A DNA stretch of 59,758 bases, filler included, from Sluysia triapertura (Eukaryota), in assembly GCA_046118255.1 (NCBI GenBank). It is 5 parts of 5 records of this genome, joined end to end, with 100 filler letters (N's around TTAATTAATTAA, not from the genome) between each part and the next. Parts side by side here need not be neighbours in the genome. Positions count along the whole stretch, not along the records: positions 1 to 11,811 come from JBJNIA010168592.1; 4 more parts are not named here. One strand, given 5' to 3'. The position numbers and the translations under genes were made by a program. Below, one piece after another: positions 1 to 57,812 of the stretch (position 1 is the stretch's first letter; every line of letters begins with the position of its first letter). The notes under the pieces were generated by a model, which worked only from the letters and a program-made list of their open reading frames with translations, searched no databases and had not been told where the DNA came from.

Positions 1-361
1 ACAGTGTCCATGGATACGAAGATATAAAGATTTTAAATATTATCAAAACTTAGTACCAGAAGAATATAAACCTATAATATCCAATTCAATTGCTGTAAGA
101 AAGGAACCGGAATGTCTATCTTATATAAGAGAAGAACCTTGTCCAATAAGAGTACCACAGTGTCCATGGATACGAAGATATAAAGATTTTAAATATTATC
201 AAAACTTAGTACCAGAAGAATATAAACCTATAACATTCAATTCAATTGCTGTAAGAAAGGAACCGGAATGTCTATCACATATTAGACAAGAACCTTGTCC
301 AATAAGAGTACCACAGTGTCCATGGATACGAAGATATAAAGATTTTAAATATTATCAAAAC
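1..361 (+). repeat. 156-bp (52-aa) coding tandem repeat, 2.3 units visible
   Basis: acagtgtccatggatacgaag starts at 1, 157 and 313. Confidence 0.95.
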
Positions 362-3300
362 CAAGAGATAGAATTAAAAGCATCACACCTAAAAAATAAT
401 CAAACATATTCATCAATAGGAAACCAAAGTCGATCTAATTCAAGAACTGATACCTCAGTTTCATTTCAAAGTCAAGAAAGTAGAATAAATGCATCATTTA
501 AACTAATCAGTAACAAATTTACATTGAAAGAAGAAAATAGATGTGGACCATCAAATATTCAAGGATCTTCTTCACCATATAATCAAAGTTCAGAGGCTGA
601 AAGACTTTATCAACGAAATGGTCTAAATCCGTGTTTAACATCTGGACAAAGACCATATTCACCAATTTTTCAAAGTCTTAATTCGTCAATAGAAAACCAA
701 AGTCGATCTAATTCGAGAACCGATACTTCAGCTTCATTTCAAAGCTATGGAGGTAGAATAAGTCCACATAAAAATACATCATTTAAACATTCATTATCAC
801 TAATCGATAACAAATTCCCGTTCAAAGAAGAAAACAGATATGAACCATCAAATATTCAAGAATCTTCTTCACCATATAATCAAAGTACAGAGGCTGAAAG
901 ACCTTATCCACGAAATGGTCCAAATCTTGGCTTAACAACTGTTCAAAATGCTGTTTCACCAATTGTTCAAAGTTTTAGTTCAACAAAATATCAAAACTTC
1001 TTTATTTCACAAGTAAGTATAAAAGATACAAATTCATCAACATCTCAACAAGATCCTTGCCAAGTAAGTGGCAAACAAATAAATATTTCGCAATTGAGTC
1101 GAAAAGGTACTCATTCATCAACATCTCGACAAAATCCAAGCCAAAACAATGGCAAAAAAGTAAATATTTCACAAATAATTCGAAATGATATGAAGTCCTC
1201 AACAACTTCACATAATCCTTGTTCGTTAAGTGCAACAGAGAAAGTTAAGTCTATGATTGATCAAAGTTTATCAAGGTTACAGGAATGCTCACCTGCAGTT
1301 AAAATACAAGCGGATCAATGTAAATCGAATTTGAATTCACACCCAACGCCTTTCTTAAACGATTTGAATCCTATATCCAAAAAAAATATATGTAATACAG
1401 ATTATGTGAATAAAGTTACGAGAAAAAGAAAAAATCGAAGCATATCAAGAGTACAAGAATATGCATATCCACTAAGAATTTCAGATTACATATGTGTGTC
1501 AACATTAAACAAAAGGATGGATTTATCAAAAGATCAATGTGGATCAAAGATGAAAATGTGTAAGAGATCAAGAATCCAACAAAATTGTCCACACCCAACA
1601 ACGACAAAAGACTTATTCGAAACTAGTACGTTAAAGCATCCTTGCAAATCAAAATCAGAACGTAATTATGTAACAGCTAAATGTGATCATTCTTTATCAG
1701 ATTTTCAAGATGATATGTATTTACCATGTTCAAATATGCAAGATTATTCATGCAAAGAATCATGTAAATCAAGGGAACAGGAAGGTCATTATGAATCAAG
1801 AGAACAAGCTCCGTGTGAACAAAGAAAACAAAGACTTCCATGTACGCAAAATGATCCACATGTAGAAGCTGATCTTCGTACATCGTATACAGAAAATTGT
1901 TTACGTTCAAAGGAATTATATTTATCAGATAAATTATGTGATCAATTTGCGTTAGATGTGCAAAATGAACTATGTTTATCAAAGCTTAATCCTATATCTC
2001 AAATATCACAAATTTATAAGTCATGTTCATCAAAGTATCCGTGCCAATCACATCCACACTTATCAAATAAGACTGTGTTGTTTGTTTCGAAGAGGCTAAA
2101 CATTCCATCATCATCACGAATTAACAAATATCAATATATGAAGAAGTCTGGAAAAAAACATTGTTCATCGAGACCACACATGAATGATTTAGATTCTTGT
2201 ATAACGAATTTTGATGAAGATCCATGCTCGGCAATAGTGAATGATCAGCCGTGCACAAAGTACGATGATAATTTGTGTTCAGCAGATAGTGATGAGATTC
2301 CATGCTCATCGTGGATTGGCGACGATTTATGTTTATCAGAAGTTCAAGAGCCGGGCACACTTTATGAACAAAGAATACAAAGAGCTCCCTGTGAATCAAG
2401 GAAACAAAGTGCTCGGTTTGTATCAAGGGATCAAGAGATATGTGAAAAAAAAATACGGAGAACACCATATGAATCAATGGAGCAATCATATCCATGTAAG
2501 TCAAGGAAACAAAGACGTTTTTATGGATCAAAAGAACAAGGAGTTCCATGTGAATCAAAGGAACAAAGAGTTCAGTTCGGTTCAAGAGAAGAAGAAGCTC
2601 CGTGTGAACAAAGAATGCAGAGAGCTCCATGTGGATCAAGAGTACAAGCTCCATCTGAGTCAAGAGAACAAAGATCTCAATATGGGTCAAGAGAAGAAGA
2701 AGCTCCGTGTAAACAAAGAATGCAGAGAGGTCCATGTGGATCAAGAGTACAAGCTCCATCTGAGTCAAGAGAACAAAGATCTCAATATGGGTCAAGAGAA
2801 GAAGAAGNNNNNNNNNNNNNNNNNNNNNNNNNNNNNNNNNNNNNNNNNNNNNNNNNNNNNNNNNNNNNNNNNNNNNNNNNNNNNNNNNNNNNNNNNNNNN
2901 NNNNNNNCTCCGTGTAAACAAAGAATGCAGAGAGGTCCATGTGGATCAAGAGTACAAGCTCCATCTGAGTCAAGAGAACAAAGGTCTCAATATGGGTCAA
3001 GAGAACAAATATCTCAATATGGGTCAAGAGAACAAAGATCTCAATATGGATCAAGAGAACAAAGATCTCATTATGGGTCAAGAGAAGAAGAAGCTTCCTG
3101 TGAAGAAAGAATACGTGAATCAAGGGAACAACGATCTCAGTGTGGATCAGGAGTGCAAGCTCCATGTGAATCAAGAGAACAAAAATCTCAGTTTGTATCA
3201 AGAGATCAAATTTTATGTGAACAACGAAGACAGAGAGCTTCATATGAATCAATTAAGCAATTGCACCCCTGTGAGTCAAGGGAACAAGGAACTTTATATC

Positions 3301-3998
3301 TATCATTTGAAGAAGGAGTTCCATGTGAATCAAGAGATCAAGCTCCATGTGAATCAAAAGATCGGTTATATCCGTGTGAATCAATGAAGCAATCACATTC
3401 ATGTGAGTTAAGGAAAGAAGGAGCTATGGATAGATCAATAGAACAAGGAGTTCCATGTGAAGAAAGAATACAAAAAGCTCCATGTGAATCAAGGGGACAA
3501 TCATATCATTGTGAATCGAGAGAACAAGAAGCTCCATGCAAACAAGGAATACGAAAAGCTTCATGCACATTTAAAGAACAAGCACATTCAAATGAAACAA
3601 CAGTACAACCATATCCTATTGAATCAAAAGAACAAACAACTTCATATAAACAACTTTTGCAAGTATTTCTTCCTGAATCAAGTGAACCAATTGAATCAAA
3701 AATGCAAAAATATTCAAGTGTATTAAAAATAGAAAGAGATACACATACATCAGTTGGGCAAAAATATCCTTGTGCATGGAAAGTGCAAACCGATCCAATT
3801 GCAAGAAGACTTCAAAACGATCCATGTGGATGGAAATCTCATAGAACAAATAAATGGATGGCTTTAAATGACCCTCCATGTTCAGGAGTATTCGTAAAAA
3901 ATTCACATTTATCAAGAAGTCGAAAAGATCGATTTTCATCTCAACCACCAGGAGATCCACATGTATCAATAACACAAGGTGATCGACTTACATCGTGA
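2..3998 (+). CDS. Large intronless repeat-rich Ser/Gln/Arg/Glu/Cys protein, 5'-incomplete, spanning a 100-N gap
   Basis: Frame 2 is open from base 2 (QCPWIRRYKDF...) through the TTG at 524 to the gap at 2808-2907. The same repeats (PCKQRMQRGPCGSRVQAP) resume after the gap and run to TGA at 3996-3998. About 1300 stop-free codons in AT-rich DNA; all repeat units are multiples of 3. Confidence 0.85.
2581..3095 (+). repeat. Coding tandem repeats of 105 bp (35 aa) and 27 bp (SREQRSQYG)
   Basis: gctccgtgt at 2597 and 2702 (105-bp period). Four 9-aa units follow the gap. The gap lies inside the array, so copy number is unknown. Confidence 0.95.
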
Positions 3999-6339
3999 TC
4001 GCAAGAAGATCCACATACATCGACATCGCAAGATATCAGTATGTCGAAATCTCTAGGATATCCATACGCATCAAAATCAGAAGGAAATCTGTGAGGCAGA
4101 TGTTCAAATATATCCATGCGCGTCAAAATCACAAGAATATCGGTATGAACCAAGAGTTCGGATAGATCCGTGTGAATCACCGAAACAAATTACGACAAAG
4201 ATATGTCCAGAGAAGTACTTACCAAGAACACAAACCTCTAAATACATTCAAAAGACTGCTTGTCAAACACAAATTCAATCTACTTCATGTCCATCAAGTC
4301 TGGAGGAAGATCTATGTTCATCTAAAATTTAGTACAATCAAATTTCATCAAAACTGCGAAATAATAAATGTTTATCAAGAGTAAAAAATAATTTATATCA
4401 AAAAAATAATTTATTAAATAATAATTAAATGAATATTAAAAATTTGGAATTTTAAATTAAAATGTAATCAATATTCAATATGAATAATGTAGAAATATTT
4501 ATGATATTATATTACATACTAATTTCTTTCCAATGTTATTACGCTACTGAAGTACATGATATGACATGTTTAGATACAATTAAACCATATAAAGAAATAC
4601 TTAGAGATAATCATTTTCATATTAGTATCATCGGTTTATTTAATACATCATGTTTTTTTTACAAAAAGACCTTTTGCGTATACTGACATGGCTATATCAA
4701 TCAATAAATTTTTTCTAACTACTGGAACACCACATGGTGTCTTTATAATAAAATTTACTATTCGTGATGCATTTGGAGAAATGACTTTAGAACACGTGTG
4801 ATGGAAATAATATTAATAATACTAATATTCATTATTTTAAATACGCCACCTATGCGTTACTGGAGATTAATATTTATAACCAATTGCTAGAGATGTTATT
4901 TGATGCTGTTCTAACTGAAGACCGCAAACAATTTTATAGTGCTCCACCACAAGCTATTGCTCATGACGACTTTTTCATGTTATTAGTAGAGAAGATGTTA
5001 GACCAAACTTAACCTACTCGTATAATGATTATGGAGGCATACGATATTTGAAGACTCCCAAAACCAATGTTTTAATCCAAGTTATAGTTATATGTTTATT
5101 ATATTGCTGTTTAAATTTTATTTTTTACACTTTAACAAGTTTTGCTAGTTTATTAAATCTATTAATTGTGTTATTGTTTTTAATTGTTTCAGGCCTTAAG
5201 CCTATGTTGTTAAAGAATATAAAAAGATGTTAAATTGTTTAAGCTTAATCGAATTTTATTTAATCCAGTTAATGTTTAATGAAAATAAATAAAAATAGTA
5301 TTATTTTTAATAACAAAATATTTCTTGCCCTCCACACAATAACCAACCAAGGTTGAGTTATAACGTAAAATTTTATTGTTATTATAACTTATTTTTTAAG
5401 TGTAAGTAAATTTTTAGTTTTATTAAAGTTTATTAATAAACTTTAGTGGGTTAGGTTTTGTTAATTCTTTTAAATAAACTGATTTTTCGAAGCAACACCT
5501 TAAGAAGGGTTGCGCAATTTTTAAATTCATATATTTGTTTTAAAGCAACACCTTAAAACGGTTTGCGCAAATATAAACTATATAAAAATTAATTGAGAAA
5601 TTTCTTAAAAGTGAAGTAATTTTTCGTAAAATAAAAATCCTAATAATACGTTTCGTATATATTAGGGGAACCGACTCCTTAGATATTTTGTAAGTAAGAT
5701 TAAGATAAGATAGAAATGCTTGCATTTTATTCATTATTAATGTCTCAGCTTTATTATAATGCATGTTAATATTATTTATGTACAAGATGTACCTAACTTT
5801 TCAACGTGACTAATTATAAACCTTTATATTGTGAAAAGTATATTAATTAATATTTGCTGTAAAACATGTTCTTAAAGTCTTACACTAAAGCGAAATTTTA
5901 ACTGACTACTTCGTAACTTTTTGGTGATTTTATATTTTGCAGTAGCTGATAGAATATTTTTGAAATTATATGTATTCTATCATTTAGTTTGTTTTCATTG
6001 TGCATTTTATGAACATTACATCATTTTAATAGTGGTCTTTTTTTTGGTTTCAGAATTTTTATTTTTATTTATATATTTAAATATTTATATATTTAAGTTC
6101 TACTTATACTTTTGCGCTCTCGTTTTGTTTTCGATAGTTGGCGTAATTTATTAAAGTGAGGAGTTGAATATAACCTTCTTTGGTTCGGAAAGTTACCATT
6201 GATACCTGGTTTTCATTGTGTTGAATTTCATATAGTATGTTCTTGTAGGTTTGTTATCATCTGAATTTTTATGGTATTATGGTCTTTTATTTGAAATAAT
6301 TATGATGACTAAGGTCAGACATTTTCCTCTGAATTGAGA

Positions 6340-6910: not shown

Positions 6911-7457
6911 GCAAAGAAATCCTTAATATTGAGCAAAATCAAATGTTGAATTTTTAATATTTAGTAAAGCAAATTTAATTAGCGCGAAATCCATATTACA
7001 TTTAACTAGCAAAGTATTTTTAAATAATGTAACTAAATCAAAGGGTATTTTTCAATATCATATGGACACTTCAACTTGCTTAGTACAAAATATTAAATCA
7101 ATATCACCAAAGTGGAATAATTACGATTACAATAAAGCATTAAAATGTGGTAAAAATTAAATTATAATAATTTATTTGATTATATGATGGCCTACTTAAA
7201 ATTAATTAATTATTGTTGTATTTAATCATCAAATAATTATTAGTTTAGGATGATCATGAAATGTATTAGTCAAAAATATTATATATCGATATTGTGCCAA
7301 AAATAAACGTTAATACTAGTTTTCAGTAAACTAGTAAATAAAATAAATCCTCCTTTAACACTAAATGTAACACAACAGGTCAAATACTAAATACTATGAA
7401 ATTGTACTGCTTTTACCATTTTATTATATGATTTAATTTTATACCATCAACGATGGC

Positions 7458-7592: not shown

Positions 7593-8370
7593 TATAATTC
7601 CAGATCTAGGTAACGCAGCCGATTGTGAAGCACCATGTATAAATGGTTTTTCAGTTTTCCTTCTACAAAAATATGAATGGTAGTGGAAATAAAAATATGA
7701 ACTGAAACAACTTATAATAAATGAATAAGTATTTATTAAGAACGAATACTTAGTAAAACAAATTAAGAAAAAGTTACAATATATACAGAAATATTTACTG
7801 TAATTTACATAACACATGTAAAATTAACAAACCGTTTTCAACAGATGCCTAGAAAGTAAACAGAATATCGAAAGCACTTCGAACAAATATCTTCCTTGAA
7901 ATTAAATACACGCGTTGCATAAATAATAAATTTATGCATCCGTTACGGTTTATATTAAATATATTTTAAAAGGACCTCGTGTCGAAAGCTGTGATGACAA
8001 CATTTTACATATTTACCATATTTTATTAATAAGTACTTAATTTTACTGATTTATTACACTTCTGATGCAAGACCCGAATCGACCCAACATGGACAATTCA
8101 GCCATATTTCTAATGCATGTATTTTTTCTATCCACTATGCATGATGAAAACAAACCAAATCATCACTATTTAATTAAAGTTTTATTTATCTTATTATATG
8201 TTTGTTAATCGTAACTTTAATTATATTTATCATCATTAATTTTTTAAAATTAACGTTATTAAATCAAAATACAGTTATTATTGATAATCAACATTCAAAG
8301 ACTGAAAATCAAAATGGTAATGTATTTGAAAATAAAATTGCAAATTAAACTAAAATAGAAAAAATAAAAA

Positions 8371-9206
8371 TCAATTATGACTTTCTGCTGATTCACCATC
8401 ATCACTTTCTTCAGATATCACACTACTACAGTTAACTGAAATCACATGCGTTTGTTTTGAATTACTTTGACACGAATCTATTTTCGGTTGTTGAGTTTCA
8501 ATTTTTATTTCATCATCATCCTCTTGCTTAAGTTTCAGTCCATTAGATAATGGGCAACATCGATTAGTGCAAGGCAACATACCGTCCTTCTGTAAACAAA
8601 TGTTTCTTTTGCTATCCGTTTCACCTTTGTTCGGTTTAGAATTTGTACATTTACAACTAATTTTTGGCCGCGGTGGATGATCATTTCCAAGTCTCTCGCA
8701 GACATTTTTCAACATCTTTTTCTTCAAATTTTCTTCCGATTGACATGTTTCATTGGCTTTACTGAAATAATTTTTCACAAATGACAAATTGTAATCAGAC
8801 GAATCATCAGATTTCTTGTTATTCAAACATAAAGATGGTCTTTGTTCGTTTTTACGTTTTAAATTATCTTTGTTCACAATTGTAGGACCACAATCTTTAA
8901 AGCCTTCAAATTCAGCTAAATCTAGTCGACTAACACCTTTAGTCCAGTGTTCTAAATTTCGCGGTGTAACAGTCACATCATCTTCATCAAATGGAGGACG
9001 CAAAAATTGACAATAACCAAAATATAAACAAGGAAATTCGAATACAAAATAATGCAACAAGTTGTTCCATAAATCATCAGTAATACGAAAACGTTTTGGA
9101 AATGCGAACAATAAAGCTGTAGCTACGACAGCAAGAGTCAAAGGATTGTACAAAGGAAAAGATCCTTCTCGATTATACAAATCAAATACAAATTCTGATA
9201 AATAAT
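8371..9206 (-). CDS. Terminal coding exon of an unidentified gene
   Basis: Acceptor tatatttag| then (D)YLSEFVFDLYNREGSFPLYNPLTLAVVATALLFAFP..., open ~278 codons to TGA. Ordered N-terminal part, low-complexity tail. Upstream exons not found. Confidence 0.7.
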
Positions 9207-9827
9207 CTAAATATACATAAAATGTATTATTAAAATCACGATTTAAAAAAATATAAATTGTTCATATAAATTGATAATCGCACAAAAAAGCTACAAAAAT
9301 CACATAGTTTTATGAAAATTTAATAAGAGAAATTGCTTTCGGTGGTTTCGACCGAATCTTTTGTACAAATGTCAATAGCCACTTTGGTGTTAATTCACTT
9401 ATAAAATTATAAATTAATCTTAAATTTTAAGAATTTTAGAATTCTGCTTGTCCTTGCAATGATGTCATATTAATTATTAATTATTTATTTTGAATTGCTA
9501 TCTGTAAGAATACAATATTTATCTTTAAGTTATTGACACTTTATATTCATAAAATTTATATTCCTAATTTGTATTTTCATACGTCTTCTATTAATTGTCT
9601 AACTATTATAGTCATTGTTTATTAAACTCATCAAAAAAGCATCATCATTTGGATTAATACCTTAAGAAGCAAGAAAAGATTATGATTCCAAAGTGAGCAT
9701 GTAGCATTATTTAATGCACTTAGAATATTGCACACACAACTTTATCGAAAACGTACTCGAGTAAATAGAAATGTCTATGCTGAGCCAAACTCCAACTCCC
9801 ACCGGTGTGATGGGATGGAGGTTACTT

Positions 9828-10448
9828 GGTTTACTCGAGCGCGCTTAGTTAGGTTTTAATATGGATTGGTTGAATTTTTCATATTTATTAAAGTATTATA
9901 TTAAATTTGGATTTGGTATTAATGAATTGGTAAATGATTTTTACACATTGATTTATGTGATGCTTATTGTTTTTTGAACACGCATGGAACGTAGGCTATT
10001 TTAAATAGTCAAAGTCGATTTTAATGTTCATTTAATCAGAAAAGTTGGTCGCGTGTCACTACAACATCTATTGTGATATATGCTCTCACTTATCCTGATA
10101 AGCAACCATACTTATATACTTTAACATTCTCATGATGCCGTGAATTTTCTAAGCTTATTGCAGTTTACGTATTCTAATATATACCAAATCTTGTAACTAT
10201 GACGATTGCACTGCTTAAAAATTGCATCAACGTAAAAACACAAATCCATTTGTATAAGAAAAAATGATATCATTCGAAAATATGAGCGTCCGAAGAAATC
10301 CAAAGAATTTAAAGTTAACAGAGTTAATAAACCTGGTTTGCCGGTTTACTCGCTCATGATTAGCTTTTATTATGGATTAGATCGTTCTGATTGATTGAAT
10401 GTTTTATATTTGTTAGAGTATTATATTAAATTTGGATATTGTGTTAAT
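9828..10448 (+). repeat. Pair of ~100-bp direct repeats (9828-9922, 10343-10448)
   Basis: Both read ggtttactcg...tatggatt...agtattatattaaatttggat. Confidence 0.75.
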
Positions 10449-10479
10449 TTTTTTCTGGGATTTTGTTGTTTCTTGACTA

Positions 10480-10912
10480 AACTATTTTTTTAAAAATTCA
10501 AGTTTGGTTAAATTTACCTGCACTATGAATTTTACAAACAGTTGCTTTTAATTTTATGGACTTCAAGATTTTCTTAATAATTTTTAACTTTAGAAATTGG
10601 TGGACATTTAAATTCAGGAGCTAAAGGTAGATAATCTAACTTGTCATGTAAATGAGCTGGAATAATCAAGTCAACAATAAATTTATTTACATCATAAATC
10701 CGTTCGAAGGCATTATGCGGTAATGGTTGTGATAAAGCCTAAACTAATAAATAAATAAACTAGTATTATTTTAGCTCTTATATAACGTTTGTTGACAAAT
10801 GTCAATCTGCCTCGTACAACATTTTCGAAAAAACTAAACGTATCAGGATCAGTTAAGAGAGTGACTCATTGTCCTTCAATTCAAGTGCCGATACCCAACT
10901 TATACCAGGTAA
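10480..10912 (-). pseudogene. Decayed protein-primed family-B DNA polymerase (Polinton/Maverick/adintovirus type)
   Basis: Collinear motifs across frameshifts: LPGISWVSAL, LLTDPDTFSFFENVVRGRLTFVNKRYIRA, ALSQPLP, VDLIIPAHLHDKLDYLPLAPE, KIHSAGKFNQ. These match recalled pPolB motifs PGLSWDAML, LLTD...FFE.GIRGG...RYA.AN, AMSQPLP, VDLEYP..LHD....PLAPE, KIH....F.Q. The catalytic D.N.LY motif is lost. Confidence 0.85.
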
Positions 10913-10974
10913 TTTTTCCCACTACCTTCGCGAATTGCAAGTTTTTAATATCAACCACAACCACTTTACCACTA

Positions 10975-11550
10975 TCAAAAATAACGCAGAGCAGGAAAAA
11001 TTTCAGTTTCAAACAAGCATTGGTTGTATAAATAAAGTGATTCGTCCAATTCGATCGTGCATAATTGCATGCAATCAATTTGGATTCTGATTGGATATGA
11101 GATATATTCTATTGGTTTCTTACACTCCATAATTTTCCATTTACCATTTGCAAAGATAACCAGTAAGTAATCTTTTAATTTACATACAAACTGTTTGGGC
11201 TTTCATTGATTAAATTTTAAATGACTAATGACATCGAACTGCTAGAAAGACGTAAAAAATGATGAAGTGATTTCATTGTACTTATTTACATATGCAAAAG
11301 TTTTTCTATTCAAACACATTAACAAAGAAATTAATACATTCTTTGTTCCATTTATATGGAGCATACAATGCTTTCTGTCCATGTATACACACTCAAAAAA
11401 TTGGTATATAAATTTTCGTTTGATTTTCGTATACAATGTTTCATCAATTTTAGCAAATTCGACCGATATACCGTAATCGTCATCGAATTGTAAACGAAAA
11501 TTTTCGTTCGATACACATACATTAAGTACAGAATTTGATAGTTTATACAA
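10975..11550 (-). pseudogene. Family-A ORF copy with in-frame stops
   Basis: One frame with internal TAG and TGA. QFDDDYGISVEF, CLNRKTFAYVNKYNEITSSFFTS and KQFVC align with QFNSDKNGICIKH, CLDKPKVNNFFHFFDVIELSYFYS and NTFLC of the 14-kb copy. Confidence 0.6.
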
Positions 11551-11811
11551 AAAACCTAGAATGTTTAACTCATATTAAATATCCTTTTTAATCGATATAA
11601 TTTACAAATTCAAATCAAGCACAAAAATCTTGTCAACTTAATTTGGTGTTATTTTATTAGAAATAAATAAATAAGATATAACATCACTAAATGAATTACT
11701 AAATAAATTACACGTATTAAATATAATTTCAGAACATTCTTACGTGAGGTTTAATGATAAAACCAATGTTCTGAATAAGTCACAAGAACGATAGAAAGTA
11801 TTTGATCTCCG

Positions 11812-11911
11812 NNNNNNNNNNNNNNNNNNNNNNNNNNNNNNNNNNNNNNNNNNNNTTAATTAATTAANNNNNNNNNNNNNNNNNNNNNNNNNNNNNNNNN
11901 NNNNNNNNNNN
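11812..11911. other. Assembly gap with artificial TTAATTAATTAA linker (also 24377-24476, 35713-35812, 48536-48635); plain gaps at 2808-2907 and 31066-31200
   Basis: Identical N44-linker-N44 structure four times. Confidence 0.95.
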
Positions 11912-13955: not shown

Positions 13956-14582
13956 TCAAAGAGTAAAAAAAACACATAAAAATGTATTTGTATTAATGTT
14001 ATATTTTATAAATACAATGTTGCGTACGCCTTCTAACGAGATCCATATTTCACTATCTGAATAAAAATAAGATAATTCAATAACATCAAAGAAATGAAAA
14101 AAATTATTTACTTTTGGTTTATCTAAACATGAATTGTTATTTGAAGTATCTGGAACTGACGATCTGAGACTTCTGAGAATGTTTTGGATTCTGGAAAGAT
14201 GATAATCATAGTATAAGTTTTCAGCCTTGTTAGGTACTAATTGGTTGACCGTGTGGGTATATATGCAATCGATCCCATGCTTGATGCATATCCCATTTTT
14301 ATCGCTATTGAATTGGTAGAACACCTTTTTGATAAGTTCACTCGCATTTGGTGCGTTTATGCATTTCTCTGATCGCAACCAATCTTGGAACTTATCAAGA
14401 CTTTTGATATTTTCTCTGCTTTCTAATGTATCATAATTCCGTAAAGTAGCTTGATAATCGTTCGCATAGTTTGGTAGTGTAAATTCTACAGTATACTCGT
14501 TAATATCCGTCAGAACTGGGAATTGCATTTATATATTTGGAGAAAAATTGTCATCGTCATCGCTAATTATAATAGATTCCAT
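13956..14582 (-). pseudogene. Family-A ORF, best-preserved copy
   Basis: 190-aa ORF preceded in frame by MESIIISDDDDNFSPNI* (ATG at 14582). Core FYQFNSDKNGICIKHGIDCIYTHTVNQL...SRIQNILRSL aligns without gaps to the 29.6-kb copy. Confidence 0.75.
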
Positions 14583-15072
14583 ATTCATTGATATCTTCAT
14601 CGACATTAAGAACTTCGAACGAATTGATAGAGGTGTTGTTCACATCTAATTCAACTAATTTTAGCACATTTGAATTAAACCTCATATTTACTAAAGGTGA
14701 TATTGTATTTAACTCGAAATGTAGATCTTTGATCGACTTAAACATTACGTGAATTATTTCAATCATTTCAAGATCTCTTAGAAATAAAAAGTGATTCAAA
14801 ATTTTCATATTATACTTTATTGATTGAATATAATGATTTAATGTTGATTCATGGATAAAGTGTAGAAACCAAATCCTAATGTAACTGATATTTGTAACGG
14901 GATTGCGAACATCGAGCTGGTATTCAACACAGTCTTTCGCACTTATCTCTTTTATAGCTATCCAAAACTCATGATAAAAATTGCACTTTGGTATATTAAA
15001 TTTTACGATCTTAATAGATGTACATGTGAGTTGCTGATGAAGGAGTATTGCTTCTATGGTAGGAGTTTCCAT
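14563..15072 (-). CDS. 169-aa intronless ORF: either an upstream gene or the frameshifted N-terminal half of the family-A copy
   Basis: ATG-initiated and stop-free; overlaps the start of the next frame by 20 nt. No family recognised. Confidence 0.55.
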   Translation of the reverse strand: METPTIEAILLHQQLTCTSIKIVKFNIPKCNFYHEFWIAIKEISAKDCVEYQLDVRNPVTNISYIRIWFLHFIHESTLNHYIQSIKYNMKILNHFLFLRDLEMIEIIHVMFKSIKDLHFELNTISPLVNMRFNSNVLKLVELDVNNTSINSFEVLNVDEDINEYGIYYN

Positions 15073-15544
15073 TCAATGATCGTGATTAAAATAAACATAT
15101 CTAATAATTTCATTGCTATCAGTATCTATCATCGTTTCATATTGATAGAGGTTAGAATCATGATGACTTAAAATATTTTCTAATTTTAATCCTTCAATTT
15201 CTAAACTTTTGATTTTCTGATTTAACTCTGACATTATTGAAGAGATGGAAAAATGAAATTTATAAAGATTAATTGGTTTGAATCACGTATTGTTTCGAAA
15301 TGATATAAATAACCCGAGCAATAATTGCGTAAAATCAATTTTGATACAATGCAGAAGAATTTATGAAAAGTCAATTAAAATAGAGCATTATCAAACGTTT
15401 TTTAAAATTCTTTATTTTTGTTTCCAATAATCCTTTACGTTTTTAAAATTCTAAATTTTTGTTGTTTTTGTTATTCGTACTCACATAAAATAAATATTGT
15501 GCCAACAAAATTTTTTGATTCTGCATACTTTGTCTGGATTCGTT

Positions 15545-22120: not shown

Positions 22121-24279
22121 GTAAGGAAAAAGAATCCAACAATTTTGTGTTAAACGTTACTAATACATATTGTTAATTATATATAACCTAGAATAAAACA
22201 ATGATTTTATAACTTTAAACTCTTTAGTGGTTCTCAATAAATCCTTGACTCTAAGTACTCCAATAGACACTCTTCTACGTAAATAAATAGTGAAAAAGGC
22301 TTCATACTCTTCATACTTTTTCTGACATTGAAATTTAAATTTCCATTTGTAAGATAAAGTAATCAAAAGTTAGAAATAATTAAGAGTGTTTATAGCCAAA
22401 AATGCTTTTAAAACGTCTTAATATCCATTCATTAAAATTTCTATTAACCTAAACTTTTAAGAAAATTTTAAAGTAGCAACTTTTTTACATTTGAAGAGTT
22501 TATAATAGCACTATAATTAAACAGGTTGTATTTAAAATCGTTATGCAAAACCCCAAGTGTCATCACAATTATATAACCCTTCTGACACTTTAAATACAAC
22601 ATAAAAACTACAGTAACTAATATTATTTATAACTCAAACATAAACACTGGCAACATTTTTTGTGGACATATTTATTTGTTCAAAAATTAATTCAATGCAA
22701 TGTGTACCATTGAATGAGTTGGTTATTAAAACAATGTCTTTCGTTTTCGCATTTCCTTTGTTCTCCTCGCGATTTTAATAATTGGAATTCAAATTTTCAT
22801 CATAAACTGTTTAATTTAGATCTAAAACGAGAAGTTTCATTCTTCTCATCAACATAACCATATCTGTTTCACTCAATTTAATTTTAAAAATTTTTACAAA
22901 AAATGACGCATGAAAATATATTTATGGAATTTATTGTTGCGGTATAATCCATACAAAATGCACGAATACTTGAACATTATGATTATAATTTTTATAACAG
23001 TACTAAGAAAAATCGCACATAAAAGAACTGGATTCTTTATTTGGTCTGCTTTTTTCTTTGGAATATTTTTTAACAATTCTTCAGAAACACTTTGGATATA
23101 AATATTTAGCAAGAAAAAACGTAGTCTTACAACTAATAATCATGTGTGTTTAACAGCATTCCTAGTATTTTCTAATTCGTTGTTTTAAAATATGCTAGAT
23201 TCTCTAACAACCCTCTAAAATTATTAAATATCAGAAAAGAAATCATTTAAAATTGTTAATTTCCATAAAATAAAATTATTTTCGAAAGAAGAAAATACTA
23301 TTTAAAAAAAAGGAAATCGAAAATTCTAGAACATTCTGGAATTTTCTATCAACAAGTATATATACTAGTATCAATCTAATATCACGACGTAATTTAATTT
23401 ATTATTAGAAAATTCACTATTGACTCTCTACCAATTATCATCTTTATTATAAAGATTGACGCTATATTGCAGTTTATTTATTTTTTCAATTTCACAATTT
23501 AATTCATAGTTAGCAAAAAAAATTAGTAAAGCAATTCAGTAGTTTCCAGCTTGAATTCAATGAAATTATCAATTGGTGTTCAATCTTAAAAATATTCCAT
23601 TAATTTGTATAGTAAGTTATTTTTTATAAGGTTGTTTCGATTTTACCTATCGAAGTATTAAAATCACAGTTAAACTATTTTATTTCTACCAATTTGTAGT
23701 GAGAGGAAAATTTTTAATTTAAAATTAAATACCTAAAACGGCTTTAATTACAAATTAGCTATTTTTATTTTTTATCTAATTTTTATAATGAATTTTGAAA
23801 GTGTCTTAGGGTTGTTAAATCTTTTCAGAATTTTAATCATTCTGTAAAGTATATAAGATTAAGGTAAATTGAAAATAAAATTAAGGATTGAATTAATTGA
23901 AATCATACATTTAAATATAAGACACTTTACAGTCGTCAAAGTGAACAGAAAGAATAGAAATCGAAAGATAAATTTTACGTTAAGATTTGCCAATTTATAA
24001 TTAAGGGAATACTCACTCTACCTCACAAGTCATTTACTGTAACCGGATCCCGCTCAATTTTTATTTTGTTTTAGGTTAAGTATGAAGAAAACCAGTCTAT
24101 AATTGCAGAATTTATTTTGATTTTAAAATTTATTTTTAAATAAAATCGCGACAGAAAAAAATCTTTAAAAATCTTAAAATCTTAAAAAACAATGTACCTT
24201 TGCGGCAAAATAAAATTAACTAAAGAATATTTTACAATAAACATTGGCAAATATAACAACACAAATTAATATCTTTGAT

Positions 24280-24318
<39 letters not shown>

Positions 24319-24891
24319 TATTATTATTATTATTATTATTATGAAAATCTTTAACAAGAATAATAATTTATAATATNNNNNNNNNNNNNNNNNNNNNNNN
24401 NNNNNNNNNNNNNNNNNNNNTTAATTAATTAANNNNNNNNNNNNNNNNNNNNNNNNNNNNNNNNNNNNNNNNNNNNACAGATTTTACAAAGAAAAATATT
24501 TTTTATTTTATCAATTTGATGAATGTATTTTTAAATTTATCATATTAAAATAAACAAATATCAAATAAATTATTTGCAAAATGACATAAATTTTCCGGGT
24601 GGCACAATTTAATAAATTAGATTAAATAATCTCTGATTAAATTATATTTGAATAGAACATTTCATTTAATAGCAAAAGAATGTTTTTATGATTATTATTA
24701 GAATATCTTACAGTAAAATATAAAATATAAAAAATGTTGGCAAATTAGCAAGAAAATAAAAATTCTCAAAGAAGCTCTATTGTAGTATGCTATAATTATA
24801 AATGTATAAAAGTTTGTCAACACTTTATAACAATCTATTCTTTTCTAAATTTGTAATTTTCTAAACATTAAAAAATTATTTCATGTTAAAA

Positions 24892-24971: not shown

Positions 24972-25568
24972 TTTCTAACAATTTTATTTTATTGTTGTTA
25001 ATTATACTATCATTATTCTGGATGGCACTTTATGCCTTTACCTCAACACTTGCATAATATGCACCACGATTATCATCCAAAAAATGAGAAGAAATGAGTA
25101 TTATTTTTCTGAGATTATGTAATGTATTAGAAACCATATATAGCATTCAGAAATTATGTCCAATGCAGTAGAATGATATATTAATGTTGATGTTTTGAAT
25201 GAATAGGAATTAAACCGAATGGACTGTTTTGAACTTGAAAAGATATTGCTTTTGTGACTTAAAAAATTCTAAAAAGGACTCTTATCATTGTGAACTAACA
25301 AAATTAACGTTCTTATTTTTGGTATACCAAAAACTTTTGTTTATGTCTAATTGAAAACCATGCGAGAATTTATTTTGGGTTACTTCGTTACGGTAAAAAC
25401 TTAATTTAATTTTCATAACGTCAGAAATGTTAAATTTTAATTTGAAGAGAAAATTTTTACTACCTACTTCATTATTATATAAGTAATACATTTTAGTGTA
25501 AGTTAGCTTCAAAATTCGGTTAAAATTTATTTCAATCTTAATGCTGCTTAGTGGAAGACTTAAATTTA

Positions 25569-25888
25569 TTACAGCCTAAAACTATTATTCGTTTCCATTT
25601 CAAATTCGACTTTAGCATTAATAGGAGTATGATCTAGTCTAATTATAACATCCTCATCCCAGCCAAAAACACCAGCGTAAAGTTGATATTGATTCAGAAA
25701 ATTTAATAAAGCTTCTGGATTGCCGTAAAAAGACTCCAGTAGAAGAACAAAGTATCTCATAGATTCAGTATTCATTTCTTTTTTCTTTCTAGTCTGTGGC
25801 ATAAAATGTTAATTCTGAAATTATAAACTTCTTTTTGTTTAAAAACAAATCTATATAATTATAATGAAACTTTACTGGGGGCACCACA
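25569..25888 (-). mobile_element. LTR-retrotransposon 5' remnant: candidate PBS plus gag N-terminus
   Basis: SFYGNPEALLNFLNQYQLYAGVFGWDED fits the F.G....L..FL..Y..YA...W pattern of Ty3/gypsy Gag. tggtgccccc lies ~80 nt upstream. Confidence 0.55.
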
Positions 25889-42348: not shown

Positions 42349-45300
42349 CTAAATTAATTTAATTGAATAAAAATTAGCAATACTTGATTAATAATTTTTG
42401 TCATTGACTAATAAAGTATATGAAATATATAAACGCTTATTATACACAGGAATAAATTTATAATATTAAATAATAATAAAATTATATTAAATTATATTAA
42501 ATTATAATTAAATTAATTAAAATTAATTTAAAAAATTATTAATATATAAATAAAAATGTCATTAATCGCCTAAAATATAAATTTATTTATTTAAACAAAA
42601 ATGATATTGTCAATGTAAAATTGTTAAGTAATGTAACTGGATATCAAGTAGAATAAGATGTAATTTAAAAATGTTTTTGTTTCATTAAAAAAACTAATAA
42701 AAATCATTAATTTATAGGAAGTCAGTTATGAACAAAAAAAATTTATGTTGGAAAATCTGATATATTAAATTATTACTAAAACAATTTAGATTAAGATTAC
42801 TATGTACTTATCCGTTAATATAAGAACAATTGTAAAAAATCGAAAGATTTGATTTATCTTACAATTTTAAACGATTTAATCAATTCTAATTTACAACATA
42901 TAGTTATATAATATGATCTCAATTTTGGCATTGTCTGTTTGCTTCACCTTTACTTATATTTAATTTATTCGCTTAATTTAATTTTAATACAACTACCAAA
43001 TAAGAAATATAAACAAAAATATAAATCTCTGATAGACTTACTGATAGATAGCAATATATTATTAATTAAGATATTATTAGTAACAATAAGTCAATAACTG
43101 ATCAATTTACTTAACAGAATCTCGACAATTTCAACAATCACAAAAACAAACATACATTATCACAAATTTTCTTATTTTAGCAATAATATTTATTATAACT
43201 CGATAATTTACTAATTACAAAATCAATTACCGTAAGTTTTTACTTTAACAATAATACAAATGAATTAAATTAACAGTAATTTTATAATAATAATATTACT
43301 AACACAATAATCTATCAAAAGAAACCAGAGGTGACGCAACTAACAAAATCAAATTATTCTTAACACTTCTAAAAAATAATTCTTTAAATAATTAACAAAT
43401 TTCATTAATATGTTCGCTTTTCTTTGCTGAACAATTATGAATACTTTCATAAAGACTGGGTTCGCCTACGTTAAGCGATTTATCTTAAGGAAGGACGCCT
43501 ATGTAGGATTTTGCTAAAGAAAAGTTGATGCTGAGGGTCACCGTGTCAAATTCTTACACGTAATATTCTAATCTTTTAATCTTGATTTTAATTTTTATAT
43601 TTCTATGGAACCTTTAACTTTTAATCTATGTTGCTCAAAACAAAAAATTTTAAAATAAAAAAATTTATTAAAACAACTTTTTAACAAATAATATATATGT
43701 ATCAAACAAAAAAAAATATATAATAAAAGCATAAATTTCAAATTTTAATTTAAATTAATTTGACCCAGAGTTAATTTTTGGGCATAAAAATTTAAATGAT
43801 TTTAAGTTGAATGTTAAGACAGCTTTTATCAGTGTCTTAAACCTAACAAAAATAAGCTTACTTAAGGTACTACAGAAAAATCAATGGCTGTAATACATAT
43901 ATCCAATCGAATTCGAATGGTAGTCTTCTGGATAAGTCTTTCTACTTATTAGTGTTTCCCACGTGTTAACAACTGACGAAATCGGATTAACAAAAGTCTT
44001 TTTAATTTCTTGTATTTTAAATTTTCCACGAACGAAAACCAAATCTTTATGTCTCTTTAACAATAACAAGTTACTAAAAATTGTGTTAGTCAAATAATTA
44101 TGTAGTACCTTTTCCGACAATAAAATTCCGTGAATAATATTTATATTTATAAATTTTGGTAAATAAATATATAGTTTATTAATTTTTCGACGATAAATTT
44201 ATAAATATTTGTGAATATTTGTATAAATATTTGTTTCCGTTTTTTCAAATTAGATAAATTATCAAAGTTTAAAACTTAATACATTTAATTAAATTATATT
44301 ATTAATTATTAACCATAATTATTTACACTAATGAATATATAATTAATATCATTAAAATTAAATTTACAAAAATTTATACACGTTTATTAAATTTACAAAA
44401 ATTTATACACGTTCGTCTTGATTATTTACAAATAAAATTAGTCTGAAAACTCAATATATCTTCCAATATAATGAAACAGAATAATTAATCTCATCTAAAT
44501 AAAAGTTATTAACTACAAACGGACTTTACTCGTCGATTAATCAGGAAACAAAATGTTTAAAACAACTGTAAATAATTAAAGAGGAAGTCTCCCAAAAACG
44601 AAACTAATTTACTTAATATCAAAATAACAAAATAAAATAAATTCACAATTTTATGCATATTCACAGCAGCAGCATTAAAGTTTCATTACTTGATGTGTTG
44701 CGTGTTCAAAATATTTAGGTATTTCTTTTATATTTTCTCATCATTCAATCATTCCTGAATTTTTTGATCAAGCATTCTTTCACACAAATCATATCAAAAT
44801 TCTATGAGAATTAAACCGGCAATTACAGTTACATGGTATAGCTTGTTGAGCTTGATTTACGATCATCTATTATTCTTCAACTCTATTTAGTAGTTTTAGA
44901 AAGAAGATTGTCTTATTAAGTTTGTAGTTTATACTGAAAAATAGGTGAACTGTAAGTATGAATTGAACTTAAACTTTGAGATTAATGGGCGTTCGGTGAG
45001 TATAGATGTGGTGGCCAACTTCTTCACAAAAAATTTTATTGTATCATTTTACGCAAAAATCATACCCATTTAACACTTAAACACTTACCACATCAAAATC
45101 GTTATACTCACATTACAAAAAAAAATTTTCAAAATAACAGTAAACAAAATGGAATTTCTTTTAACACTTCTAACATCACCAAATCTCTCTTAAAAATACT
45201 CTTTTCTTCATTTTTATTATTATCCTTCCTTTTTCTCAATTTACACAATTTTATTTGATTACAACGTGTAAATTTTCTGTAACAATCATTTTGTAACACA

Positions 45301-45982: not shown

Positions 45983-48900
45983 GGATACTAAAATCCAAAA
46001 AAACCCAGGAGTGGCTCAAGAGACACTAACAATTCAGTATCTGGAAAGTTAATAATAATTATGCTGCTTACATATTTTTAGTTACCTTAACCAAGCATAA
46101 TCACGATTAAATATTAAAATAAAAATTTTGGACAGAGATCCTTTCTAAAACTTAACAGTAATATCTAAAATATTTTATATTTGTAGGGTGTTTCCCACAA
46201 AACTAGTTTTTAAAAATGGCTAAAAAGAGATCAAGAATAATAATCAAATATACATTAAAATAATCACCTAAAATTTATTATCTTTCAATCAAATGTTTTC
46301 CCAAAAAAGAAAATTTAATTATTTATTTTATTTCAATTTTATAATAATAAAATAATAAAAATGAAAATAAATAAAGACATTAGCATGGATCTTCAATATC
46401 GGTAGGATTAAGTGATTGTAAGATTGTGCAATTGTGATGTAAAAATTTAGAAATTTTTATTTTATACTCTCTCATCATCCATTCAATGCACAGTCTCACA
46501 ACCAAACACTCTCTCATACAGATCATCTATACCTCTTTGAAAATCAGACCGACAATAACAACTTTGACAATTACATGTACGATCTGTCAAACTTCATTAG
46601 GTACAAAACATAGAAATCTGATTTATTATCAACCATCATTTCCTTTTACACTACTCAATCTATTTTTACTTAAATTAATTCTCACATTAAAATAATGATC
46701 AACAATATTATTAACATACATAAAAATAATGAACCTAATTTCACTTTTACTATTTAATTAATTTTTGATTTTCACACCCAATTTTCTAATAAAGATATTT
46801 TAAGGTTCTCATTCTCAAACGAACCATTTTACAAAATTTAGAACCTACTTATAGATTCTCCTCTTTGACAGCAATCAACTCATATTCAATTCATTACATT
46901 TGCATCACTCTAAGTATTAAAAATAAAACATTCCATACCATAATGAACTCGGTGAAACCATAACTCCATCGGAAGGTCTTTTCAAAACAAATACATACAC
47001 AGATTCAAATTCAACATAGTATTCCTCATTTAAAAGTTATTCACACAAACGTAATTTTTCTTAATTAAGTTAATTAAGGTTTTAATTAATTAATCTATTT
47101 TTAGACTTAATTTTATTTTATCTTTAAAGGTTTTATTAAGTTTCTAAGGCATTCAGGAGGCTCTAGATGTTTTCGCCTCACTTCTCACATTCCTTTTTCT
47201 ACTTCTTCATATTAATTATTTACTTCACTAAACTAATTCTTAATATTAATAACAACAATTTCATTTTTCAAGTGTTTTAAAGATTTTAAATAACTTTATA
47301 AGGTTACTAAAGAATCTCAAATGCTTACTGATGTTTTAAGAGTACTAAAGGTTACTAAGATCTCAAATAATCTAACAGTTCATAAGTTCAAAAGTATATT
47401 AATACTTCAAAAGATTTTTCAAGTCCATCTCAAACATCCATAAAGGTATTTGGTAGATATTTCATAAACTTTCATAGATCTTTGCATTGCCAAGATATTC
47501 TTTAGATGTTAACATTATTATAAATATTTAATTTTTATGATTCTTATTTCAACGCTGTTTATAATATCAGATCCATCACTTAGTATCAGTTCTTTCTTAA
47601 TTTTGTAGTTCTATATGTTTCTCAGTTGGGCAATCCCAACAGTATGTTTAAGAATCTTAAAGATTATTTTTAAAAGAAAATTATAAATTTATATGCCGAC
47701 TAATTTTATTAATCAAATTTGAATATAAATTTCCGTCGAATTTCCGCCTTAATATTATCTGGAAATTATCTAAAATAATGAATTTTGTGACAAATAAACG
47801 CTTACTTTTTGATTATAATAAAATTAAAATTTAAGATTATAATTATAATAATACCTATCATTACAACAATACATGAAATTAAATTGAATATAAATCTAAT
47901 CACATATAAAACTTTTGATACAATACGCAACACGTTAACGGTAAGTCACATGTCAATTTCAATTAACATATTTAGAATGAGAATTAATTTAATATATACT
48001 TTTATTATGTATGCTCATTATACTACATAGAAATTTAACTTTATAATAAAGAAAATTAATTAAAACTGATGATTTTAAATTGGTGTTAATAACACTGATA
48101 TATTGTTTCGTAATTTATTTAATTAAAATTTGTTTATTATGCAATTTGTTTGATTGTCTTTTAATTGCTTTTTATTTATTTTAAAATTATCTTAATTATT
48201 GTTTGTTTTTAATTAAATTTTTACTTAATTTTTTTAAATAGCAGGAGATTTCAGAAACAGTATTGTCGAAGTTAAACAGATAAGTAGTCTCCCTCTTTAT
48301 ACAGTCTGTAAAAATCTTTATTATCGTCTTCTTTGTCATAAGACATCATATTTATCTGGCCTGCAAACACCGTTTAGTCATTGTTTGTTTTAGAACGATT
48401 GTCATAATTGTTGTGTCTTTTAATACTTTTATTTTCCCAAATTATTAAATCAAAAGTCAATAATTAAATAAACTCAAAACCTCAGTATATTTGATATATT
48501 ATCAAAACTACAATCAGATTATATAAATTATAATANNNNNNNNNNNNNNNNNNNNNNNNNNNNNNNNNNNNNNNNNNNNTTAATTAATTAANNNNNNNNN
48601 NNNNNNNNNNNNNNNNNNNNNNNNNNNNNNNNNNNATGTTGTGAAATAGTATTAAATGTACTTGTGGTTTATATGTTGTAAGTTGTGATTGTGATTTGAT
48701 TTAAACCAATAAGCTATTGAATAAATATTATTAAACATTGAGTATTAATTGTTACAGAGTGGTGTAAAATGAAGGTTCGAAAGTATTAGATGGATTGTCT
48801 CGGATGTGTTTGTTGTTTAATTATTGTAAATGTCGAGTATTTTTTCTGATGAGTTAGTTAATGTAATTTGGTAATGTTAAATATGATTGTGATTTAGATG

Positions 48901-57174: not shown

Positions 57175-57812
57175 TTATTTTAAAACCTTCATTATATACT
57201 TTTTATTTATAAGATTAAATAAGCAAGAACTTGAAACTTTATTATTAAATATACAACATTTAATTTTTATAATAATTAACATCAAAGTTTGTATAATGTC
57301 TGTATTTTCATGTCGTTGGATATTTTGGTTGTGGAGTCCTAAAAAATAAATAATACGTATAAAACTCATGTTCATTAAAGAATAAAATTATAATTCTTCA
57401 AGTCTTGGATTATGAAATCGATAATAGAAATTGTCTTCATATTGGAAGTTTGAAAATCGTTGAACTTCGAATTGTTGTAGGAATAACTGCATTGCAACGA
57501 GGCCAATAAACTATGTAATCGTTGTCTGTGTTCGTATGCCACTTGTTCATTGCCATATATTTCAGTGACATTTTGGTAAAAACTGAAGGATGTACCGAAT
57601 TTGATGCATATTCCAAAAGCATCTAGTTGATAAGGATATTGTGCCATACGCTCTTCTGGTTTTATACTTGGTATAAAAGCCGATTCTTCCAGTGTTTCAC
57701 ATTGTTTAGTTGGTATTGCTTCAGTTCTAGTCGTTTCTGATTCAGAAAAGTTTTCTAATCGCCTAATTACATTGTATGACACTACAGCGTACACGTCCTC
57801 GTTCTAATACAT
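57175..57812 (-). pseudogene. Family-A ORF copy
   Basis: YPYQLDAFGICIKFG...YEHRQRLHSLLASL versus YQFNSDKNGICIKHG...YHLSRIQNILRSL. In-frame stop after MY at the start; frameshift near 57380 into FFNEHEFYTYY. Confidence 0.7.

Follow-up and report, generated by a model that had tools for sequence, protein, structure and literature searches.

The stretch of Sluysia triapertura DNA analysed here (59,758 nucleotides, filler included; hereafter the window) is AT-rich eukaryotic DNA with a GC content mostly of 17-36%, and contains microsatellites, dispersed repeats and gaps. On its minus strand lies a decayed fragment of a protein-primed DNA polymerase (pPolB), about 430 nt long and keeping some 180 of about 1250 codons, next to a largely open frame that we refer to as frame U. 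The features of this locus are as follows, with reference residues counted on the intact polymerase of the locus L064.

10485-10912, minus strand: decayed pPolB fragment, aligning to reference residues 790-971
10895-10912, minus strand: LPGISW block (reference 790-795), the first piece with significant pPolB similarity
10773-10859, minus strand: LLTD...RG...RYIRA block (reference 808-836), in a frame that differs from that of the LPGISW block
10809-10859, minus strand: LLTDPDTFSFFENVVRG piece of pPolB, collinear
10739-10772, minus strand: expected site of motif A (DxNNLY), shortened by about 50 nt and carrying a frameshift and a stop
10577-10738, minus strand: open 54-codon piece that runs from ALSQPLP to LPLAPE (reference residues 865 to about 940)
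10913-10974, minus strand: spacer of 62 nt between frame U and the pPolB piece, the likely junction
10975-11574, minus strand: frame U, 199 codons, described in the earlier note as a "family-A ORF"

Identity and decay of the polymerase fragment

References were gathered with a DNA pattern taken from the window's own HDxxxxLPLAPE block, which brought 7 viral and 119 metagenome loci (14 of them retained as polymerases by eye), and with an alignment of 8 references, which brought 22 viral loci, one of them already found earlier. The final set comprises 28 ORFs longer than 400 aa, of which 27 entered the profile (one duplicate was dropped); three broken L147 pieces were excluded.

Six-frame translation places the pPolB blocks in two or three frames of the minus strand, running from 10912 down to about 10485 as the collinear motif series that had been described for this DNA: KRYIRA ends at 10773, ALSQPLP occupies 10738-10718, VDLIIPAHLHDKLDYLPLAPE lies at 10675-10613, and a weaker tail extends to about 10485. 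A tblastn search of the window with the L064 polymerase joins two of these blocks at a sum E of 3.5e-7. Frameshift-aware alignment to the profile, with an X placed at every break, gives the fragment a score of 170.2, which none of 362 control stretches from the window reaches (maximum 50.6). Since the references had been fetched with the window's own motif, the HDxxxxLPLAPE block is circular as evidence, and the score was therefore recomputed without it; the fragment then scores 104.6, and the 750 controls again all fall short (maximum 40.6). Matches of an 8-sequence HMM among 1194 window tiles are confined to the pPolB pieces (i-E 3.8e-6 and 3.5e-5, against an E of at least 1 for any other tile), and the value of 3.5e-5 belongs to the LLTD...RYIRA block, which is independent of the seed motif. 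The two best of the 28 references are 39% (L064, 159 aligned residues) and 41% (L128, 157) identical to the fragment, and the 54-codon piece retains 75% DNA identity to L064 over 67 nt.

It could be argued that AT-rich DNA has produced these motifs by chance, given that neither Pfam nor PHROG recognised the broken frames or the window ORFs at curated cut-offs, and that two protein-collection searches with the pPolB-bearing frames in the correct frame came back empty. PF03175, however, also misses the intact references (see below), no control attains either score, five blocks are collinear, and a block outside the seed motif is significant in its own right; we regard chance as refuted. Judged by these comparisons of sequence, the pPolB remnant is real, and the Polinton/adintovirus-type identity earlier proposed for it is supported. 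The assignment holds for 10485-10912; the rest of the interval originally given to the polymerase (10480-11550) lies outside the match. A viral-contig scan with the 54-aa piece found no relative, phage tblastn gave two chance rows and nothing more, a PDB sequence search with the pPolB alignment returned 0 matches, and an exact sequence look-up matched 0 of 8 sequences. Some AT-rich reference genes matched other parts of the window in DNA comparisons at low stringency; these matches were set aside, there being no protein-level support for them.

Decay of the fragment is marked by about three frameshifts (near 10870, 10755 and 10565), at least two in-frame stops (one immediately ahead of ALSQ, another following KNY) and several short deletions. 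By motif pattern, the Exo I-III motifs of the reference lie at residues 449, 599 and 757, and Pol motifs A, B and C at 857, 993 and 1090. No intact copy of these motifs occurs in the remnant, whose alignment spans only 790-971: the exonuclease motifs precede the match, motifs B and C come after its end (around residue 971), and the residues flanking motif A, 87 nt apart in the reference, are 37 nt apart in the window. With motif A lost to a deletion of about 50 nt, and neither the exonuclease motifs nor motifs B and C present, the remnant is, as read from its motifs, dead as a catalyst and has no present function. The loss of the N-terminal region and motif A had been recognized in the earlier note and is borne out; the loss of motifs B and C goes beyond it.

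Polinton-like relatives and the probable polymerase class

The reference loci are Polinton-like, with ORF clusters for an rve integrase (15 loci), a Pox_A32 ATPase (11), an adenain-like protease (8 loci; representative E 0.0096) and a double-jelly-roll capsid (3), the identity of each cluster being taken from a scan of one representative. The corresponding profiles found none of these genes in the window. The best i-E was 0.25 for the integrase (15-sequence profile, 1194 tiles, from which a very decayed copy could escape; a gap lies at 11812), 2 and 4.1 for the A32 packaging ATPase and the protease (11- and 8-sequence profiles), and 2.2 for the capsid, whose profile holds only 3 sequences. Eleven profiles built from the non-polymerase reference ORF clusters likewise had no match in the window (best i-E 0.25), and when all 500 reference ORFs were compared with it by tblastn, the polymerase matches and one unrelated short match were the only results. 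Target-site duplication is a feature of Polinton/Maverick elements. No terminal inverted repeat (TIR) was found in 9300-11811, where the longest inverted pair is 32 nt, 75% identical and AT-only; the gap at 11812 bounds the upstream side.

None of the eight intact reference polymerases scanned has a PF03175 match, and seven of the eight match Endonuclease_7 (HNH). Starrett et al (PMC8502044) apply the name Alpha to PolBs of the pfam03175 type and Beta to a divergent type, and report that degraded endogenous adintovirus relics occur widely in animals, with a frameshifted, stop-ridden example on human chromosome 7. Jeong et al (10.1101/2023.08.22.554363) place an HNH domain in pPolB2 of nematodes and oomycetes; further domain background comes from Krupovic et al (PMC11161782). 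Since its closest intact relatives have no PF03175 match (8/8, in a comparison set without Alpha-class members) and mostly carry the HNH domain, the remnant likely belongs to the Beta/pPolB2 class, a label that derives from the absent PF03175 match and the published descriptions and not from a tree.

With the Beta adintovirus and Polinton group-1 PolB relics of Starrett et al (PMC8502044), the remnant would share its class of pPolB, one without a pfam03175 match as judged from the references, and like the chromosome 7 relic it is a frameshifted, stop-ridden pPolB in a eukaryotic chromosome. The likeness to Beta adintovirus relics is one of description, and unlike them the present locus has about 180 of about 1250 codons, with capsid, protease, ATPase, integrase and TIR not found. 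The pPolB2 Polintons described by Jeong et al are matched by the Endonuclease_7 domain inside pPolB of seven of eight references; they differ in keeping all Exo and Pol motifs, whereas the remnant is without the N-terminal region in which this class has its HNH and OTU domains. L064 and L128 are nearest by identity, and L064 is AT-rich and matches at the DNA level; these elements, in contrast to the remnant, are intact, and no other gene of theirs matches the window. Within L064, a phospholipase A2-like ORF (4296-4607, minus strand) is convergent with pPolB and has relatives in the Polinton-like loci L128 and L131.

Frame U and its boundary with the polymerase piece

Frame U and the pPolB piece lie in repeated DNA.

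9792-11810, no strand assigned: multi-copy block in contigs of one public run, holding frame U and the pPolB piece and ending at the gap at 11812
9864-9923, plus strand: 60-nt direct repeat, 87% identical to its partner at 10389-10448

Depth was taken from contigs of that run over 8000-11810 (n=2377; the run may be the assembly's own source) at an 80% cut-off, and summed contig depth is not equal to copy number. It amounts to 15-60 over 8128-9791 versus 260-3600 over 9792-11810, with single positions of the pPolB piece covered by 28-31 different contigs and position 11101 by about 100. Between the two copies of the direct repeat, several other contigs omit 433-444 nt; a wider imperfect direct repeat pairs 9828-9923 with 10343-10448, 511-525 nt apart. 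More dispersed repeats of 70-75% identity were seen at 6456-6910/46943-47445, 17478-17963/20495-21003 and 26354-26741/47680-48072. The gaps at 11812-11911, 24377-24476, 35713-35812 and 48536-48635 share an identical 12-nt filler between N runs, so that apparent repeats at these four places are artefacts. Three further observations concern other parts of the window: a very long ORF at 2-3998 (plus strand) with degenerate 9-residue (27-nt) PCESREQ-type repeats, interrupted by an N gap at 2808-2907; a 296-codon ORF at 8371-9261 (minus strand) that lies in low-copy DNA and has a C-terminal cluster rich in cysteine, with no family match at cut-off; and a segment at about 30330-30480 (plus strand) that by eye we take to resemble the second membrane helix of DEG/ENaC channels, with no Pfam match at E 0.1. 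This resemblance is the single pointer in the sequence to an animal host.

Frame U has no start codon at its 5' end, internal stops at 11244 and 11205, and a terminal stop at 10977-10975. Two stops in 199 codons compare with a window mean of 16.5, and none of 2000 shuffles is as open; this openness beyond chance shows that U was once coding. In-frame stops of all three kinds give no indication of an altered genetic code. Among 25 listed variant sites in U, 4 fall at first, 10 at second and 11 at third codon positions, a distribution that says nothing about coding either way. Pfam and PHROG scans of the frame gave nothing at curated cut-offs, the Atlas held no usable match for its 5' ORF, a viral-contig scan with that ORF found no relative, and a single-sequence fold reached a pLDDT of 31. 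A 172-nt block inside U (11057-11229), bounded sharply at 11057-11069 and at 11229, is matched by up to about 100 different contigs; it could be a short repeat in its own right or the portion of the family that has survived best. Weak matches of U to 23443-23581, 25474-25624 and 43998-44060 were the top scan hits, and were put down to chance, these three being mutually dissimilar in the matching block.

The polymerase match begins 62 nt past the end of U on the same strand, as the earlier note had it (about 60 nt). The note also held a deletion to be the probable origin of the junction. Beyond 10912 pPolB similarity is no longer significant, and depth falls to 21-68, about that of a single contig, at 10868-10915 (280-640 upstream, 590-1550 downstream), which makes a deletion near 10913 plausible; the dip, seen in one run at the 80% cut-off, overlaps a frameshift of the window copy and may instead reflect that copy's own divergence. 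Among the 15 contig joints listed of 66, none crosses 10868-10915, and the listed joints connect the spacer with U and parts of U among themselves.

These data leave room for an unlikely but substantial alternative, in which U is no separate ORF and no cargo: its 3' half would be strongly eroded upstream pPolB, from the exonuclease III side (reference 690-789), with a short insertion ahead of the first clear motif. Strand and order are as this requires, and for the blocks that begin at 690, 712 and 735 an in-frame end-to-end fit is equalled by only 0, 1 and 9 of 500 shuffles. The two best of 32 sliding blocks fall at the expected place (z 3.2 and 3.5; next 2.8), a free 90-nt spacer with the 8-sequence profile gives 4/704 controls and 0/200 shuffles, and the best local hhalign match of U along the whole polymerase is to 705-766. 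These supports all draw on a single signal rather than on independent ones. Against them, the absolute score is negative (-18), and the most conserved reference motifs of this region are unrecognisable in U while the core of the polymerase is 40% identical. Upstream of 10912 the local pPolB score is not significant (31 of 346 controls reach it), strict frameshift-aware anchoring fails in 12 of 12 settings (fraction 0.10-0.94), and hhalign of U with upstream pPolB is equalled by 36 of 100 shuffles. Nor do the parts of the fit fare better: block 770-789 alone is matched by 116/500 shuffles, the 5' half of U by 150 and 183/500, and the single-sequence L064 version by 83/704 controls. Codon-position GC in U (0.32/0.24/0.30) also differs from that of both pPolB pieces (0.42/0.39/0.26 and 0.48/0.28/0.15). 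A neighbouring frame at 11015-10976 had been considered by eye as an exonuclease III block, near the expected distance; about half of random positions score as high, and it was set aside as unproven.

A further comparison is offered by a second scrap of polymerase in the window.

7005-7204, plus strand: second decayed pPolB scrap (reference 684-760, exonuclease III side)

It lies 3.3 kb away on the strand opposite to the main fragment and scores 68.5, a value that none of 236 shuffled tiles reaches (maximum 46.9). This scrap retains recognisable motifs of the very region that is missing upstream in the main fragment, and it has no DNA similarity to frame U; both points speak for a break near 10913.

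The three-copy ORF family and the origin of the locus

The earlier note had taken the frame upstream of the polymerase for a member of a family A carried by the replicon. Only one multi-copy ORF family was found in the window, with three intronless, partly broken copies (pairwise z 5-10).

13956-14528, minus strand: copy 1, degenerate CCCH-zinc-finger-like, probably the family A of the earlier note
29259-29789, plus strand: copy 2, with two internal stops
57375-57803, minus strand: copy 3, placed by pairwise similarity

Sub-threshold zf-CCCH_UNK matches in two copies (E 0.003 and 0.01) recall CCCH (TIS11/Unkempt-like) zinc-finger proteins, from which the family differs in its degenerate fingers, and from which the aligned block of U differs in being free of cysteine. 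Atlas neighbours of the family at 0.76-0.78 serve as a lead only, and a viral-contig scan with copy 1 found no relative. Long frames lie directly upstream of two copies (14563-15282, minus strand; 28854-29258, plus strand), showing similarity neither to one another nor to U. The idea that family A is itself part of pPolB was considered and dropped (hhalign E 0.16).

We think it improbable that U is a CCCH-finger-like family-A gene carried as Polinton cargo and fused to mid-pPolB by an internal deletion. U and the family have DxxGIxxxF and HxxxxxNxLxSL blocks in the same order, codon-position GC in U resembles that of the family ORFs, and other contigs join spacer and U collinearly (10954-11020 to 11057-11117). 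Local scores are borderline (7, 14 and 36 of 500 shuffles as high, within a range of 7-141/500 over six profile settings; hhalign 8/100), while end-to-end fits are equalled by 24-141/500 shuffles, pairwise comparisons by 61-181/300, and the family profile places U tiles 38th and 100th among 396. The block of U aligned to the family has none of the CCCH-like cysteines. Membership of U in the family is thus not confirmed, the tests running from not significant to borderline.

The cargo reading needs, in addition, that family A travels with the element, and here no match was found: when the whole window was scanned with the pPolB profile, no significant match lay beside any of the other three family copies, and the family profile had no convincing match in the 500 ORFs from 29 Polinton-like reference loci (best E 0.024; 0.23 for U). 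The empty viral-contig scans and the lack of a TIR in 9300-11811 weigh the same way. With its first requirement borderline and its second without a match, the claim that family A is cargo of a Polinton replicon is not supported, and in DNA full of decayed repeats the adjacency of U and pPolB is weak evidence. We accordingly give little credence to a fuller scenario in which a Beta-type Polinton lineage took up a CCCH zinc-finger gene and carried it through the genome as cargo, the present locus being a deleted, high-copy, non-autonomous derivative with the cargo fused into mid-polymerase, and the scattered family-A ORFs being remains of the same elements.

The reading we prefer, at a probability of roughly 0.6, is that the locus holds a broken, non-catalytic Polinton/Maverick pPolB fragment, likely of the Beta type, likely left by an old integrated element and likely brought beside a separate decayed frame by deletion or nested insertion. 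By the gene content of the reference loci, an autonomous element with pPolB, rve integrase, A32 ATPase, protease and double-jelly-roll capsid would have integrated and multiplied via protein-primed replication, and its copies would afterwards have eroded; a deletion or nested insertion would have put the pPolB piece beside frame U. The pPolB scrap is most likely an ordinary relic.

Were the CCCH-finger-like family Polinton cargo after all, this would be a case of a DNA-virus-like element amplifying a gene of RNA-binding type. As it stands, the locus is of little further importance beyond recording the past presence of a probable Beta-type Polinton in this genome. For annotation it carries a lesson, in that PF03175 misses this class of polymerase even where the gene is intact, as in all eight references.
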